A DNA stretch of 64,000 bases from Acidobacteriota bacterium (GCA_028749235.1 JAQULS010000001.1:755-64754), one strand, 5' to 3'; positions 10,118 through 36,581 are shown, counted from the first letter of the stretch. The notes: generated by a model from the letters alone, not told the origin. A program made the numbers and translations.

Positions 10118-10165
10118 AAAAAAAAGGCCGTTTCCGCCGGCGTCTCATCGCCGGAGAAAACGGCC
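10118..10165 (-). terminator. rho-independent terminator downstream of the YHS-domain gene
   Basis: On the minus strand the sequence is GGCCGTTTTCTCCGGCG-atgaga-CGCCGGCGGAAACGGCC followed by T8. It lies immediately after the stop at 10173. Confidence 0.7.
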
Positions 10166-10172
10166 TGACGGC

Positions 10173-10940
10173 TTACTTCTTGGTCGCGCAGGAAGCGCAG
10201 GCTCCCTCGGCGCAAGCCGACGGGCCGCCGGCGGAATCCTTCTTGGCCTCTTTCATCTTGGCCGCGTGCTCCTGGATCTTCTTGACCGTCTCGGCGTTCT
10301 TGGAGGTCACGGTGATGACGACGCCGTCCTTGACGATCTCGACCTTGCGCTCGACGTCCGCGCCCATCATCGGACAGCCGGCCTTGTTCCCGGCCTTCAT
10401 TTGTCCCTTCATCATCTGGCCGTGCATCATGCCCTGGCCGTGGATCATGCCCTGGCCGTGGATCATGCCTTCAGCGGGCTTGGCCGCGGCCGCCAGGAAC
10501 TTTTCCGGCTCCTTGACGAACTCCGCCTTGCTGCCTTCGCAGCAGAAGTAGTACTTGGTCCCCTTGTATTCGTACGTCGCATTGGCCGTGGCCTTGTCGA
10601 TCATCATGCCGCGGACCGGATCCTTAGCCTTGGCCGGATCGTCGGTTTTGGCCGGCATCATCTGGCCGTGCATCATGCCTTCGTGGGTCATACCGGCGGC
10701 GGGCTTGGCCTCGGCCGCCAGGAACTTTTCCGGCTCCTTGGCGAACCTCGTCTTGCAGCTTTCGCCGCAGAAATAATACGTCGTGCCCTTGTAGTCATAT
10801 GTCCACTTGGCCGTGGCCTTGTCCACCGACATGCCGCAAACCGGGTCCTTGGCCTTGTCGGCCGTTTGGGCCGCGCCCAGGCAAACGCCGCCCGCGACAA
10901 TCAGCAGCAGGGCTAGAATCAACCAATTCATTCTCTTCAT
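10173..10940 (-). CDS. secreted tandem YHS-domain, Met/His-rich putative copper-binding protein
   Basis: Signal peptide MKRMNWLILALLLIVAGGVCLGAA. Two YHS/TRASH-like repeats (DPVCGMSVDKATAKWTYDYKGTTYYFCGESCKTRFAKEPEKF and DPVRGMMIDKATANATYEYKGTKYYFCCEGSKAEFVKEPEKF), each followed by Met-rich tracts (GMIHGQGMIHGQGMMHGQMM). C-terminal Cys cluster CAEGACASCA. The DNA shows a tandem duplication of about 290 nt. Confidence 0.8.
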   Translation of the reverse strand: MKRMNWLILALLLIVAGGVCLGAAQTADKAKDPVCGMSVDKATAKWTYDYKGTTYYFCGESCKTRFAKEPEKFLAAEAKPAAGMTHEGMMHGQMMPAKTDDPAKAKDPVRGMMIDKATANATYEYKGTKYYFCCEGSKAEFVKEPEKFLAAAAKPAEGMIHGQGMIHGQGMMHGQMMKGQMKAGNKAGCPMMGADVERKVEIVKDGVVITVTSKNAETVKKIQEHAAKMKEAKKDSAGGPSACAEGACASCATKK

Positions 10941-10990: not shown

Positions 10991-11019
10991 ATTATACATT
11001 GGAATGATAGGAACAATAA
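10991..11019 (-). promoter_or_regulatory. candidate sigma70-type promoter for the YHS gene (minus strand TTATTG-17 nt-TATAAT)
   Basis: Minus-strand reading ttattgttcctatcattccaatgtataat is about 45 nt upstream of the start at 10940. Pattern match only. Confidence 0.3.
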
Positions 11020-11116
11020 ACCCGTTCGATGCCCCGGGCTTAAGGCAGGGTTAATACTGAGCGGCGCTTATAACCCCGATTTGAAAATCGGGGTTATAAG
11101 CGCCGCGAATGTATCA
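11015..11116. repeat. intergenic repeat element family 1, copy A; contains a perfect 20-nt inverted repeat at 11063-11104
   Basis: aataaacccgttcgatgccccgggctt...agggttaatactgagcggcgcttataaccccgatttgaaaatcggggttataagcgccgcgaatgtatca. Near-identical to 24324-24421. The terminal ...gcgcgaatgtatca is shared with 52171-52189. Lies just downstream of the copA stop. Confidence 0.75.
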
Positions 11117-11138: not shown

Positions 11139-13400
11139 TCATTCGCCCGGGCGGAAGCGCTTGAGGCGAAGGGAATTCGAGACGACCGACACCGAGCTGA
11201 AAGCCATGGCGGCCGAAGCCAGCATGGGATTGAGGAGGATGCCGAAAAACGGGTACAGGGCTCCGGCCGCCACGGGGATGCCCACGACGTTGTAGATGAA
11301 AGCCCAGAAGAGGTTCTGCTTGATCGTCCTCATCGTCCGGCGGCTCAAGGCGACGGCCCGGGCCACGCCGGCCAGGTCGCCCCGGATCAGGGTGATGTCG
11401 GCCGCGTCCATGGCCACGTCCGTTCCCGTGCCGATGGCGATGCCGATGTCGGCCTGGGCCAGGGCCGGGGCATCGTTGATGCCGTCCCCGACCATGGCCA
11501 CCCGGCGGCCTTCGGCTTGCAGGCGGCGGATCTCGGCCGTCTTGTCGGCCGGGAGGAGCTCCGCCAGGACGCGCTCGACGCCCGCCGCCCGGGCCACGGC
11601 CTCGGCCGTCCCGCGATGGTCGCCCGTCAGTATGATGACATCCAGGCCGAGCCCCTGGAGCTTGCGCACGGCGGCTTTCGCCCCTTCCTTGAGCGGATCC
11701 GCGATCGCCAGGAGACCGGCCGCGCGGCCGTCGACGGCCGCGTATATCGGAGTCTTGCCCTCGCCGGCCAGGATCCCGGCCCGGGCCGCCCAAGCCGAGG
11801 CGTCAATGCCCCGCTCTTCGAGAAGAGCGCGGTTCCCGATCAGGACGGAGCGGCCGCCGACCGAAGCCGCCACTCCCCGGCCCGCCACGGCGGAAAAATC
11901 GGCGGCCGAAACGGGCGCCAAGCCGCGGGAGCGGGCCGCTTCGAGGACCGCTCCGGCCAGCGGATGCTCGGACAGGCGCTCGGCCGAAGCCGCGACGGCC
12001 AAAAGCCCCGCCTCGTCCCAGCCTTCGGCCGGCCAAACGTCGGTCACTTCCGGCGCCCCTTTGGTCAGGGTGCCGGTCTTGTCGAAGACGACGGTCGTGA
12101 TCTTGTGGGCCGTCTCCAGGCTGGCCCCGTTCTTGATCAGGATGCCGAGTTCGGCGCCTTTGCCGGTCCCGACCATGATCGCGGTCGGAGTGGCCAGACC
12201 CAGGGCGCAAGGGCAGGCGATGATCAGGACGGCCACGAAATTGAGCAGCGCCATGGTCAGGGACGGACGGGGGCCGAAAGCCCACCAGGCCGCGAAGGTC
12301 AGGACGGCGATCGACAGGACGACCGGGACGAAGACCCCGGCTATGGCGTCGGCCAGGCGCTGGATGGGGGCCTTGGATCCCTGGGCCTCCCGGACCAGCC
12401 TGACGATCTGGGCCAGCGCGGTGTCCCGGCCGACCCGGGTGGCCCGCATTTCGAAGCCGCCCGTCTTGTTCAGCGTCGCTCCGATGACCGGATCGCCGGC
12501 CGTCTTGGCCGCGGGCATGCTCTCGCCGGTGATCATCGACTCGTCCACGGCCGATCCTCCCCGCACGATGACGCCGTCGACGGGGACGCGCTCGCCCGGA
12601 CGGACCACCAGGACATCGCCGACCGCGACCTCGCGGACCGGGATCTCGATTTCATTCGGGCCGCGCAGGACGCGGGCCGTCTTGGGCTGCAGCCCGATGA
12701 GCGCGCGGATGGCGTCCGAGGCGCGCCCCTTGGCCCGGGCCTCGAGCAGCCGCCCGAGCAGGATCAAGGTGATGATCACGGCCGAAGTGTCGAAATAAAC
12801 ATGGGGAGCCGGCCCGCCCCGGGCGAAAAGTCCGGGGGCCAGGGTGGCCGCGGCGCTGTAGGCATACGCGGCGGTCGTGCCGACCGCGACCAGGGTGTTC
12901 ATGTCGGCGGCTCGATGCCTCAAGGCGGACCAGGCGCCCCGGTAAAAACGGGCTCCGATCCAGAACTGCACGGGAGTGGCCAGGGCCCAGAGAAGAAACG
13001 GATTGTGCAGAAAGGCCGGAAAGCCCGACACGAGCCGTCCCATGCTTCCGGCCATGACCATGGCGCTCAAAGCCAGGCCGATGAAGAAGCGGGACCGGAG
13101 GCGCCTTATGTCGCGATCCCGCTGCCTCGCTTCGACGTCCTCCTCGTCCTCCTCTTCGGAAACGCGGACGACCCCGTACCCGGCCGCTTCGATGGCCGCT
13201 TCCAACCCGGCCCGCCGGACCCGGCCGGTCAGGTACTCGACCGTGGCCCGGTTCGTAGCCAGGTTGACCGAGGCGCTCACGACGCCCGGAACGCCGAGCA
13301 GGGCGGTTTCGGCCCGGCGGACGCACGAGGCGCAGTGAAGGCCCTGGATGGCGATCTCGGCCTTGACCGGGGCCGGACCGGTTCGTTTTGTTTCGTTCAT
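11139..13400 (-). CDS. copA: copper-translocating P1B-type ATPase
   Basis: N-terminal HMA domain [11 protein letters not shown] transmembrane motif ([13 protein letters not shown]), DKTGTLT phosphorylation site and [10 protein letters not shown] hinge. ATG at 13400 with RBS GAGGAGAAAGACG. The track ORF extends to an alternative TTG at 13415. Confidence 0.9.
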
Positions 13401-13411
13401 CGTCTTTCTCC

Positions 13412-13699
13412 TCAACGCCGGAACCGGGAGCGACCCAAAAGCTCCAGGATCTCGGCGATCTTGCGGTCCTGATCGACGCGGTTGCTCCCGGCCAGGGACT
13501 CACGGACGCAGGTCCGCAGATGCCGGGCCAGGATATTGTCCTCGACCTTCCGCAGCGCTCCGGCGACGGACTGGAGCTGGGTCAGGACGTCGATGCAATA
13601 GCGGCCATCCTCGATCATCCGCCGGACGCCCTGCACCTGGCCCTCGATCTTTCGCAACCGGCTCACTTCGTCGACATGTTTTTCGGGCGAAACACTCAT
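13412..13699 (-). CDS. csoR: CsoR/RcnR family metal-sensing transcriptional repressor (copper-sensing)
   Basis: 95-aa ORF with the characteristic C...H...C motif context ([33 protein letters not shown]). Directly upstream of copA. Confidence 0.85.
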
Positions 13700-13796
13700 C
13701 GGGCACCTCCTCGTCCATTATACCATACCCCCCCATGGTATATGCCATAAACCCGGAGCGAAGTTCTGATGGGGAAGTCGGCCGGGCCCAGACGGG

Positions 13797-14962: not shown

Positions 14963-15826
14963 ATGAAAATGCCGCGCCTTGAAATCGTCGCCGCCGCCGT
15001 TATGAGCCTGGCCGGCCTGGCCGCCGCCCAGCCCCGCCTGGAGCTGTCCGTCGGGATCGGCAACTGCGTTTCCTCCTGGAAGGACGTCTCTTACAGCCAT
15101 GCTTATACGCCGCCGTTTCTCTATGACTCGACGGCCGTCACCTCGGGCCTGCAAACACTGACTCTCGGAGTCGATTCCATCTTCGGGGGATCCCTCAGCG
15201 CGGCCGTGATCGCCGGCCACTTCGGCGTCATGGTCACGTACCTCGCCTTCAACCCCGATATCTTCGGCACGAGCTCGGCGGACGCCGTCAGCGTCCGCTA
15301 CACCGCCATGCAGCCGCCGGACTACACCCCCACTCCGGCCGCCTTGGACTTCTCGACCAAGATGGCGGATCCCAACGGCGAGCTTCGCGAGACGACGATC
15401 AGCCTGGACGGCATCTTCCGCGTCGCCTTACCGGGCTGGTTCAGCCTGGACTTGTCGGCGGGCTTGACCTGGTTCAACATCGAGGGCGAAATAGGGGTTC
15501 TGGACTATTGGAAATTCTGGCTGGGCGGACATTCCGTCCTCTTTGCCCAGCAATACCAGCTGCTGATGGACATCGAATCGTTCAACCGGATCGGAGGCAA
15601 CGCCGGCGCGACTTTGAACTGGCACATGGCGACCAACGCGTCGCTCTGGATCGAGGCCCGTTACTATTTGGCCGGGTCCGGCCAGGCCGACTTGAGCTTC
15701 GAGCCGGTCGAATCCGAATCCGTCATCGTGGCCTTCGATCCCGAGACCGACATCATCCCGGTCGGCGACCTTGTCATCAAGCCCAGCTTCTTCCGCTTCG
15801 CCGCGGGCTTCCGGATCGTGTTCTGA
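14963..15826 (+). CDS. outer membrane beta-barrel protein (hypothetical)
   Basis: Signal peptide MKMPRLEIVAAAVMSLAGLAAAQP. Alternating amphipathic beta-strand pattern and C-terminal aromatic terminus ...AAGFRIVF. Confidence 0.7.
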   Translation: MKMPRLEIVAAAVMSLAGLAAAQPRLELSVGIGNCVSSWKDVSYSHAYTPPFLYDSTAVTSGLQTLTLGVDSIFGGSLSAAVIAGHFGVMVTYLAFNPDIFGTSSADAVSVRYTAMQPPDYTPTPAALDFSTKMADPNGELRETTISLDGIFRVALPGWFSLDLSAGLTWFNIEGEIGVLDYWKFWLGGHSVLFAQQYQLLMDIESFNRIGGNAGATLNWHMATNASLWIEARYYLAGSGQADLSFEPVESESVIVAFDPETDIIPVGDLVIKPSFFRFAAGFRIVF

Positions 15827-24323: not shown

Positions 24324-24421
24324 AATAAACCCGTTCGATACCCCGGGCTTTGTAGGGTTAATACTGAGCGGCGCTTATAACCCCGATTTGAAAATCGGGA
24401 TTTGACGCCGCGAATGTATCA
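24324..24421. repeat. intergenic repeat element family 1, copy B
   Basis: Near-identical to 11015-11116 over about 100 nt. The right arm of the inverted repeat is degenerate here (atcgggatttgacgcc). The last three nt (tca) form the TGA stop of ychF. Confidence 0.75.
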
Positions 24422-35259: not shown

Positions 35260-35988
35260 ATGGCGGGAACATTCGACCGGACAGCCGTCGAGAAGATCGT
35301 GCGGGACGTCCTGCGGGATCTTCCCAAGGCCGAGGGCGCACCGCGCGGTGACGGCCCGGCGACTCCTCTCCCGGTCAATGTATCGGCCCGCCATATCCAC
35401 CTCTGCCGCAAGGACTTCGAAGCGCTCTTCGGCCCGGGCGCCCAACCGACGCTCCTGCGGTCTCTCTATCAGGAGGGCCATTTCGCGGCCCGGGAGACCG
35501 TGGCCATTATCGGCCCCAAGAAGCGGATGATCCCGGAACTCCGCATCCTGGGCCCGCTGCGGGACCATTCGCAGGTCGAGCTGGCCTTCACCGACGTCAT
35601 CCACCTGGGGCTCGAAAACGTCCAAGTCCGCATGTCGGGAGACATCGAGGGCACGCCCGGGGCCTGGATCCAGGGTCCGGCCGGCATGCTGGAGTTGAAG
35701 CAGGGCGTGATCCGGGCGGCCCTGCACGTCCACATGAACGAGCGCGACGCGGCCCGGATGGGGGTCGTCCACAAGGGCTTTCTGGCCCTCCGGGTCGAAA
35801 GCGACGCCCCGGTCGTTTTCGGACGCGTCCACGTCCGCGTCGACCCGTCCTTCAAGCTCGAAGTCCACATGGACACGGACGAGGCCAACGCCTGCCACCT
35901 GGCGGCGGCCCGAAACGTGTCCCTGATTCCCGTACCCGGGAGCATCGAAAGTCCCGACGACATCCACCATAAAGGAGCGCGTGCATGA
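35260..35988 (+). CDS. pduL: phosphate acyltransferase PduL (phosphotransacylase)
   Basis: Two PduL repeats with the signatures VNVSARHIHLCRKDFEALFG and AALHVHMNERDAARMG. RBS aaggaga upstream. Confidence 0.85.
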   Translation: MAGTFDRTAVEKIVRDVLRDLPKAEGAPRGDGPATPLPVNVSARHIHLCRKDFEALFGPGAQPTLLRSLYQEGHFAARETVAIIGPKKRMIPELRILGPLRDHSQVELAFTDVIHLGLENVQVRMSGDIEGTPGAWIQGPAGMLELKQGVIRAALHVHMNERDAARMGVVHKGFLALRVESDAPVVFGRVHVRVDPSFKLEVHMDTDEANACHLAAARNVSLIPVPGSIESPDDIHHKGARA

Positions 35989-36275
35989 GAAAAGCATTGG
36001 GCATGATTGAGACGATCGGCTTCGTCCCCATGCTGGAAGCCACGGATGCGGCCTGCAAGGCCGCCCACGTGACCTTCCTCCATTGGGAGCCGGCCGGTTC
36101 GGGCATGGTCACGGCCTTCTTCGAGGGCGAGGTCGCCGCCGTCAAGGCCGCCGTCGACGCCGGCGCCGAGGCCGCGGCCAAGCTGGGCAAGGTCGTGGCC
36201 GCCCAGGTCATCCCGAATCCGTACCAGGATCTCGAGGCTTTCACCGCGGGGAAGCCCAAGCCCCGGACCGCTTGA
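35985..36275 (+). CDS. BMC-H shell protein (hexamer, PduA/EutM-like)
   Basis: ALGMIETIGFVPMLEATDAACKAAHV is the BMC (Pfam00936-like) core. 96 aa. Confidence 0.85.
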   Translation: MRKALGMIETIGFVPMLEATDAACKAAHVTFLHWEPAGSGMVTAFFEGEVAAVKAAVDAGAEAAAKLGKVVAAQVIPNPYQDLEAFTAGKPKPRTA

Positions 36276-36299
36276 AGCGGGCCGAGCGAGAGGACGCAA

Positions 36300-36581
36300 A
36301 TGAGCAATCAAGCCATCGGCATGCTGGAAACGCGGGGCATGGTCGGGCTGGTCACGGCCGGTGACGCCATGTGCAAGGCCGCCAACGTGACCATGATCCG
36401 GACGGTCGAGATCGGCGGCGGCTTCGTCACCACCGTGGTCAAGGGCGAAGTCGGCAGCGTCAAGGCCGCCGTCGAAGCCGGGCTGCTGACCCTGAAGGCC
36501 GTGGGGGCCGAGATCATCGCCGCCCACGTCATCCCCCAGCCGCACGATTCCACCCTCGGGCTCGTGGACAAGAAAGGCTGA
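36300..36581 (+). CDS. BMC-H shell protein (hexamer, PduA/PduJ-like)
   Basis: AIGMLETRGMVGLVTAGDAMCKAANV. 93 aa. Confidence 0.88.
   Translation: MSNQAIGMLETRGMVGLVTAGDAMCKAANVTMIRTVEIGGGFVTTVVKGEVGSVKAAVEAGLLTLKAVGAEIIAAHVIPQPHDSTLGLVDKKG

Follow-up and report, generated by a model that had tools for sequence, protein, structure and literature searches.

A putative exported tandem-YHS protein with Met/His-rich linkers, encoded behind copA in an Acidobacteriota bacterium

This work concerns an open reading frame (ORF) of 255 amino acids in a 64,000-nucleotide stretch of DNA from an Acidobacteriota bacterium (GCA_028749235.1, JAQULS010000001.1:755-64754), which at its full length is referred to below as the window. 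The ORF lies behind copA, the gene for a Cu(I)-exporting ATPase. It encodes two tandem YHS units, each followed by a Met/His-rich linker, and then a small folded C-terminal unit and a Cys-containing tail. A cleavable Sec signal peptide seems to be present at the N-terminus, and on balance we think that the protein probably functions as an exported, soluble, multi-site Cu(I) sink or chaperone that acts after CopA. What is new here is this specific architecture, its conserved place behind copA, the naturally degenerate second YHS unit, and a C-terminal repeat for which no curated model exists.

Domain structure of the tandem YHS protein

The ORF is real; a GGAGG Shine-Dalgarno sequence is found 5 nt upstream of its ATG, and its GC content at third codon positions (GC3) is 0.86, in a window of 66.7% GC. 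From the N-terminus, the layout is a signal peptide, YHS unit 1, a Met/His linker, a degenerate YHS unit 2, a second Met/His linker, a CPMM motif with a ββα unit, and a tail of three Cys and KK. The features are as follows, with predicted local distance difference test (pLDDT) values from AlphaFold2.

10173..10940, minus strand: tandem-YHS ORF, 255 amino acids, with its stop codon at 10173-10175
10869..10940, minus strand: predicted Sec signal peptide MKRMNWLILALLLIVAGGVCLGAA, residues 1-24, cut before QT (heuristic)
10707..10859, minus strand: YHS unit 1, residues 28-78, pLDDT >90
10635..10706, minus strand: Met/His-rich linker 1, residues 79-102, with 5 Met and 2 His, predicted disordered
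10482..10634, minus strand: YHS unit 2, residues 103-153, pLDDT >90, fold kept
10377..10481, minus strand: Met/His-rich linker 2, residues 154-188, with 7 Met and 3 His
10236..10376, minus strand: CPMM motif and β-hairpin/helix unit (DVERKVEIVKDGVVITVTSKNAETVKKIQEHAAKM), residues 189-235
10176..10235, minus strand: disordered tail ending C243-x4-C248-x2-C251-ATKK, residues 236-255

The Pfam YHS profile (PF04945) matches the protein in two stretches, with E=2.1e-31 and 108.1 bits (gathering cut-off 30.3), which bears out the initial annotation, made from the sequence alone, in reading the repeats as YHS domains. AlphaFold2 predicts three confident domains (residues 29-78, 104-153 and 190-235) with disordered linkers between them. 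The putative metal ligands of YHS domains are an Asp and three Cys in the pattern D-x2-C ... C-x3-C (PMC4626032), and unit 1 keeps the full set, as D32, C35, C58 and C62. A Met/His-rich run behind each unit, as originally described, is indeed present (GMTHEGMMHGQMM and GMIHGQGMIHGQGMMHGQMMKGQM), the two linkers together holding 12 Met and 5 His in 59 residues. The run in linker 2 reads GMIHGQ GMIHGQ GMMHGQ MMKGQM, the GM(I/M)HGQ hexapeptides being derived from 18-nt tandem repeats. An independent metagenomic protein that is 94% identical, P0001, has one hexapeptide unit fewer in this linker. The C-terminal Cys cluster pointed out in the initial annotation, CAEGACASCA, occupies residues 243-252 of the tail (CAEGACASCATKK). 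The conserved β-hairpin and helix between linker 2 and this tail had been overlooked.

Weak Pfam matches were obtained to the zf-FCS and TRASH models, and the Cys tail matches Fer2 weakly (E=0.026, far under its cut-off). Among the Pfam and NCBIfam matches at E<=1 there are none to HMA/CopZ, CusF, CopC or other Cu chaperone families. The NCBIfam model NF041384 gives 33.7 bits against a cut-off of 70, a partial match that does not make the protein a member. A Foldseek search of the PDB with the full AlphaFold2 model returned only weak YHS/TRASH matches (E>=0.35), to phenol and toluene hydroxylases, L24e and a MYM TRASH domain, and sequence and profile searches of the PDB gave nothing below E=0.2. 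By exact look-up, the identical protein is absent from a collection of 15 billion sequences.

The window protein is the closest relative of a metagenomic family with 364 matches, some of them from metagenome-assembled genomes of Candidatus Aminicenantes, and its own clade is probably Aminicenantes. The family layout starts with a signal peptide and 1-4 YHS units, most of them followed by a Met/His (sometimes Cys) linker. It ends with a CP(M/L/F)(M/H) motif, a DVExKVENTKDGVVITLTSKNxETVKKIQEH unit and a tail of 2-3 Cys followed by KK(K). The C-terminal Cys pair or triple and the KK(K) are kept in most members. In the literature on YHS proteins we found no study that deals with this family.

Internal duplication and the degenerate second YHS unit

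The internal duplication is far beyond chance: the protein self-alignment scores 250, against 27 ± 5 (maximum 53) in 1000 shuffles. It had been proposed that the ORF contains two copies of a unit of about 95 residues and that the same duplication is seen in the nucleotide sequence. The duplication is clear in both DNA and protein, with 176 nt at 82% identity at a spacing of 225 nt; the unit length is wrong, the repeat period being 75 amino acids (225 nt).

The second copy had also been said to have lost the first Cys of its motif, which is correct and incomplete. Two of the four ligands are gone, by C110R (TGC to CGC) and C137S, each a single-base substitution, so that the ligand positions now read D107, R110, C133 and S137, and C134 and M113 are new. 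Despite this loss, unit 2 aligns at all structural positions. At the unit 2 ligand positions, 35 of 37 aligned homologues have Cys invariantly or nearly so, and across 120 homologues and 80 metagenomic loci a residue other than Cys at the first Cys position is found only in the window protein and in P0001. As R, CC and S recur in unit 2 of P0001, the changes are real and are not sequencing errors.

Unit 2 is the more divergent of the two, with a mean identity to other units of 62%, against 73% in the case of unit 1. Because unit-to-unit identity within one protein ranges across the family from 65% to 98%, and because the number of units varies from 1 to 4, the sequences indicate repeated duplication or gene conversion among the YHS units.

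Export signal

The N-terminus has, by heuristic criteria, the n-h-c layout of a cleavable Sec signal peptide: K2 and R3, an uncharged core of 17 residues, and G-A-A|Q. After residue 25 the maximum of the Kyte-Doolittle hydropathy averaged over 19 residues (KD19) is 0.6, and there is no second hydrophobic segment. The same signal layout is seen in 115 of the 117 N-terminally complete homologues, mostly with small-x-small|Q, in agreement with the signal peptide assigned in the initial annotation. A lipoprotein was considered and rejected, Cys20 being preceded by G-G-V with no lipobox ([LVI][ASTVI][GAS]C); P0001 has Gly at this position, and the other homologues lack the Cys as well.

We infer that the protein is exported, and we take the periplasm to be its compartment because Aminicenantes are assumed to be diderm. 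The mature protein would be of about 24.8 kDa and basic, with a pI of 8.9.

Genomic context

The features around the YHS gene are as follows.

13725..13741, minus strand: CsoR-type operator ATACCATGGGGGGGTAT, abutting GGTATAAT
13412..13699, minus strand: gene for a csoR-family copper-sensing repressor, overlapping the copA start by 4 nt
11139..13415, minus strand: copA, a P1B-1 Cu(I)-exporting ATPase with one N-terminal HMA domain (CASC) and the CPC, YN and MxxSS motifs
11015..11116, minus strand: repeat element of about 100 nt filling the copA-YHS spacer, with a 46-nt near-perfect hairpin at 11061-11106
10991..10996, minus strand: TATAAT box 50 nt upstream of the YHS ATG, with TTTATT 18 nt further upstream
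10118..10166, minus strand: intrinsic terminator-like site between the YHS gene and thiM, a 17-bp interrupted stem with eight U (z = -2.6)
24324..24421, minus strand: second copy of the repeat element, right at the ychF stop codon

The initial annotation placed the YHS gene in a copper-export operon. The copper genes are present: a P1B-1 copA, whose product matches the Cu-ATPase subfamily TIGR01511 with 639 bits, and upstream of it csoR. The CsoR-type box (ATACC-N7-GGTAT) adjoins a TATAAT some 30 nt ahead of csoR; the window contains no second one, and six related loci (L006, L094, L106, L107, L110 and L113) keep it before csoR. The operon, by contrast, is weakened as a claim by the 198-nt spacer between copA and the YHS gene, by the hairpin and the TATAAT within it, and by the confinement of the CsoR box to csoR.

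These neighbours bear on the nature of the metal. YHS/TRASH domains have a treble-clef fold, and L24e binds Cd through equivalent Cys (PMC4626032), so the protein could instead be a general binder of soft metals (Zn, Cd, Hg or Ag) or a structural-Zn protein; the YHS units would then be treble-clef zinc fingers, with copper not their physiological ligand. The weak zf-FCS and TRASH matches fit this idea, as does a four-unit relative of the C-terminal repeat that lies by a PF13801 Metal_resist gene, near a CDF transporter and ZnuA. Nevertheless we think it improbable, as the neighbouring pump has the Cu(I)/Ag(I) signature (CPC, YN, MxxSS) together with its Cu-ATPase subfamily match, the regulator is of CsoR type with a CsoR box, and GMxHGQ tracts of Met and His are typical of ligands for Cu(I) and not for Zn.

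Both copies of the repeat element sit just after a stop codon, that of copA and that of ychF, and the element extends from TGATACATTCGCGGCG across a near-perfect 34-nt palindrome to GGGTTTATT. The 3' end of the copy in the spacer supplies the -35-like TTTATT ahead of the YHS gene. The element has no match in Rfam, and no RNA family reaches its gathering score in the window. The 46-nt palindrome was rejected as a CsoR operator, the 12 nt between CCCC and GGGG being the wrong spacing and the palindrome being part of an element also found after ychF. The TATAAT site may be a promoter of the YHS gene's own, and relatives carry TTGATT-N16-18-TA(T/G)AAT at the same place; a scan with the promoter consensus gave no above-threshold site near the gene. 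The strong terminator-like hairpin behind the gene was likewise not reported by a simple terminator scan.

In many relatives the spacer has other contents. A conserved ORF for a hydrophobic peptide of 29-35 amino acids (for example MTAKILVTLAGLGLIAFVNWYFFPR...) lies directly after the copA end or overlaps it (L002 1592-1693, L005 6824-6916, L006 6652-6744, L007 6705-6794, and also in L106-L160), and with a strict pattern it can be recognised in 9 of 41 metagenomic loci. The 30-residue peptide has no match in NCBIfam; a small membrane subunit of the pump is a possible identity. The window lacks the peptide ORF and has the repeat element in its place. In L003 (7019-8000) the spacer extends over about 1 kb in which no gene was called, and a GC-rich hairpin-like repeat (...GGGGAACCCGC.CGGGGTT.CCCTTGTGAG...) occurs in it several times, which suggests that the copA-YHS spacer is a hot spot for insertion of repeat elements.

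Conservation of the position after copA

A metagenome scan with a profile of the C-terminal unit gave 80 loci. In the window's clade (clade A), which has the motif VKKIQ, the gene next upstream, on the same strand, is copA in 41 of 43 informative loci, the copA-YHS gap ranging from -4 to 518 nt. A sister clade, which shares the architecture and is recognised by the motif VKAIQ and a long Met/Arg-rich linker, has copA as a neighbour in 0 of 18 loci. The question raised in the initial annotation, whether homologues always follow copA, is therefore answered for these loci with nearly always in the one clade and never in the other.

Exact look-ups gave consistent results for both clades. Every clade-A place that was fetched has copA, sometimes the peptide ORF, the YHS gene and thiM, followed by thiE at all of them except L007; at one, the upstream ORF of 813 amino acids carries no Pfam record. 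Two members of the sister clade, L004 and L088, have no copA nearby. Proteins of the sister clade (L004 7001-7681, L088 6001-6684, and L138-L168) carry a single YHS unit and the motif VKAIQEHMTEHVAMMKKMK, and their linker, long and rich in Met, Arg and Gly, contains extra CPMM motifs. Downstream of the gene, L004 and L088 both have genes for a 155-residue protein, a radical-SAM (HemN-like) protein and a Tricorn protease.

The conserved neighbourhood is mnmA-csoR-copA-YHS-thiM-thiE, together with multihaem cytochromes. This is relevant to a second alternative, that the protein passes Cu(I) from CopA to periplasmic or membrane cuproenzymes, as CueP, PCuAC and Sco do, and so serves maturation and not detoxification. 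Such a metallation chaperone would draw on the same evidence of localisation and copA adjacency as the Cu(I) sink, a possible promoter of its own without a CsoR box would fit expression independent of copper stress, and periplasmic metallation by way of CopA-type pumps is documented (PMC9470648). We judge it unlikely, given that the conserved neighbourhood contains no cuproenzyme gene, and that many low-affinity Met/His sites and a variable number of units (1-4) look more like buffering than like hand-over.

Outside this family the usual context of YHS repeats is different. A scan of GTDB was dominated by YHS domains fused to ATPases, the close Aminicenantes relatives not being among the matches listed, and was used only to describe this usual context. 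In 61 of the best 80 GTDB loci the CopA ORF begins with tandem YHS repeats that are separated by His/Met/Cys-rich linkers, and all plasmid matches listed with an annotated feature are in or beside a gene for a cation or heavy-metal P-type ATPase. This upholds the view that YHS domains are usually cytoplasmic appendages of such ATPases. Since these CopA-fused arrays occur in other phyla, YHS arrays are tied to Cu-ATPases beyond shared ancestry. Secreted multi-YHS proteins are sporadic elsewhere, for example in L010 and in L070, where the gene is directly before copA.

The prevalence of the fused form raises the possibility that the window protein faces the cytoplasm, as a membrane-tethered substitute for a CopA-fused YHS N-terminus with its hydrophobic N-terminus as an anchor. 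The archaeal CopM, a cytoplasmic stand-alone TRASH chaperone encoded beside copA (PMC3595675), would be a further parallel. We regard this as very unlikely. K2 and R3 precede the core, which by the positive-inside rule places the N-terminus inside and the rest of the protein outside; the core is only about 17 residues long, contains a GG pair and is followed by a small-x-small|Q site conserved in the family; and the window CopA already has an HMA domain of its own.

The C-terminal ββα repeat unit

The C-terminal unit of the window protein is a β-hairpin and a helix, with conserved His225 and Met229. It has no Pfam or NCBIfam model, and a Foldseek search of the PDB with the model of the unit gave nothing credible (best E=0.6). 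A profile was built from the family's own C-terminal units (DVExKVENTxDGVxITLTSKxPExVKKIQEH). Searched exhaustively, it matches 944 clusters (at 50% identity) with E<=1e-3, of which 317 reach E<=1e-10. Composition was counted on 140 newly retrieved proteins (P0145-P0284) among the 150 best matches. Most of these have 2-8 tandem units, 131 of the 140 are without YHS, and about 70% begin with a signal-like segment. Cys-rich linkers are found in about 40%, and about 40% have no Cys at all. Proteins that appeared to consist of the C-terminal unit by itself start inside the Met-rich linker and have no signal peptide, and were treated as truncated gene calls.

Two members of the repeat family may be mentioned for their surroundings. 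The Cys/Met-rich member with four units (L170 6001-6789) directly follows the PF13801 Metal_resist gene mentioned above, with the CDF transporter, an ECF sigma factor and ZnuA nearby, and another member adjoins nuo genes.

JGI names several relatives of the window protein 'TusA-related sulfurtransferase', a label that derives from recurrent sub-threshold matches to TusA (PF01206) in the repeat family. It could accordingly be asked whether the protein is a redox, sulfur-transfer or Fe-S protein, with a TusA-like C-terminal unit or with a tail whose Cys bind a cluster, the latter being hinted at by the weak Fer2 match. We give this hardly any weight. The matches in the repeat family score no higher than 27.2 bits, under the cut-off of 28.6, and do not support membership of TusA, and the window protein itself has no match to PF01206 (TusA/COG0425) at E<=1. 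The order CPMM-β-β-α is unlike the TusA fold and has no structural match, and the Fer2 match is far below its own cut-off.

Comparison with known systems

YHS domains outside the cytoplasm have been recorded before. In C. jejuni FetA one is predicted to be periplasmic (PMC10783030), the protein table of a study of the Legionella type II secretome includes a YHS domain-containing protein (PMC12239567), and NF041384, 'YHS domain-containing (seleno)protein', is a curated model of YHS proteins whose architecture differs from that of the window protein. An extracytoplasmic place for a YHS protein is therefore not without precedent.

By homology, the closest known relatives are the CopA-fused YHS/TRASH repeats and CopM, and both are cytoplasmic. 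The former, exemplified by the rhizobial group VII Cu-ATPases with two TRASH/YHS domains (PMC5552934), share with the window protein the Pfam domain, its tandem arrangement (2-5 copies), the His/Met/Cys-rich linkers and the constant association with a Cu-ATPase. They differ in being fused to the pump and cytoplasmic, whereas the window array is a separate product with a signal peptide, an additional C-terminal unit and a Cys tail; and the window CopA carries an HMA domain where the compared pumps carry YHS repeats. CopM, of the Sulfolobus copT-copM-copA cluster, is similarly a small stand-alone protein of TRASH/YHS type whose gene adjoins copA, with which it is co-transcribed (PMC3595675). In contrast to the window protein it has 56-71 amino acids, one domain, no signal peptide and no Met-rich tracts, and acts in the cytoplasm, upstream of the pump.

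The functional parallels are found elsewhere. The role proposed for the window protein, export and the capture of Cu(I) by Met and His after CopA, is that of CusF, CueP and the 'sponges' of PcoE/CopM type (PMC9470648, PMC4335983), and it shares a basic surface with CusF. However, none of them has detectable kinship with the window protein in sequence or fold, and the latter joins Cys-based YHS sites to Met tracts. The Met-rich domains of multicopper oxidases of CueO type are likewise disordered Met/His segments proposed to recruit Cu(I) transiently (PMC11494321); there the segment is an insert in an enzyme, whereas in the window protein the segments link the metal-binding domains of a non-enzymatic protein. 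Finally, the YHS domain of the M. phlei adenylyl cyclase has the same D-x2-C...C-x3-C set as unit 1 (PMC4626032). There the domain serves as a cytoplasmic sensor module within an enzyme fusion, and the response was measured with Cu(II). This is the only experimental case of a YHS-mediated copper response that we found in the literature.

Proposed function

The proposal of a Cu(I) sink or chaperone is based on three precedents: a YHS domain gives copper-dependent activation of the mycobacterial adenylyl cyclase (PMC4626032), Met-rich domains recruit Cu(I) (PMC11494321), and CusF docks on CopA, which makes a periplasmic acceptor for CopA an established concept (PMC9470648). We infer both that copper is the metal bound and that the sites divide the labour. 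The flexible Met/His linkers would capture Cu(I) rapidly by their thioether and imidazole groups, in the way of the Met-rich regions in proteins of the CueO, CusF and PcoC types. The tighter thiolate sites would then hold it: YHS unit 1 (Asp32, Cys35, Cys58 and Cys62), the CPMM motif with His225 and Met229 of the C-terminal unit, and the three Cys of the tail. YHS unit 2, with its fold kept and two ligands gone, is probably a spacer or a weaker Cys/Met site. Given that the C-terminal units come in tandem in other proteins, the single unit here most likely packs against copies in other chains, giving oligomers, or against a partner.

Several points weigh against this proposal. The export of the protein is predicted by heuristics. 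No CsoR box precedes the YHS gene, and co-transcription with copA is unproven, in view of the 198-nt spacer, the hairpin element and the possible separate promoter. The sister clade keeps the architecture away from copA. The loci come from related organisms, so that the counts are not of independent events, and common descent within Aminicenantes may account for part of the synteny. The Cys sites of YHS/TRASH domains can bind Zn or Cd, as L24e does Cd (PMC4626032). Any role given to the C-terminal unit is a guess, as it matches no known structure or family, and the Cys-free relatives imply that the unit itself need not bind metal.

A bolder version, which we find rather doubtful and offer only tentatively, is that the CopA-fused array of other phyla has moved across the membrane in Aminicenantes to become a periplasmic acceptor, and that the C-terminal unit represents a large unmodelled family whose Cys/Met/His-rich members form a new class of metal buffers in the envelope.

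The handling of Cu(I) after CopA is well worked out only where CusF exists, and in most phyla the acceptor is unknown (PMC9470648). A conserved, probably exported YHS/Met-rich protein behind copA in an uncultured phylum is a testable candidate for the missing acceptor step, and would offer a second experimentally tractable context for the poorly characterised YHS domain. In such work the degenerate unit 2 would show, as a natural control, which residues are important. The C-terminal unit, for its part, indicates that secreted repeat proteins of this kind form a sizeable family, one described by no curated library.

Other features of the window

Two further regions of the window, both on the plus strand, are worth recording. 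At 14963-15826 there is an ORF of 287 amino acids with a signal-peptide-like N-terminus and no Pfam match at E<=0.001; its C-terminus (...GFRIVF), which ends in Phe, is reminiscent of the outer-membrane β-barrel signal. At 35985-36581 there are two short ORFs, of 96 and 93 amino acids, whose opening sequences (M..ALGMIETIGF...) look like those of bacterial microcompartment shell proteins.

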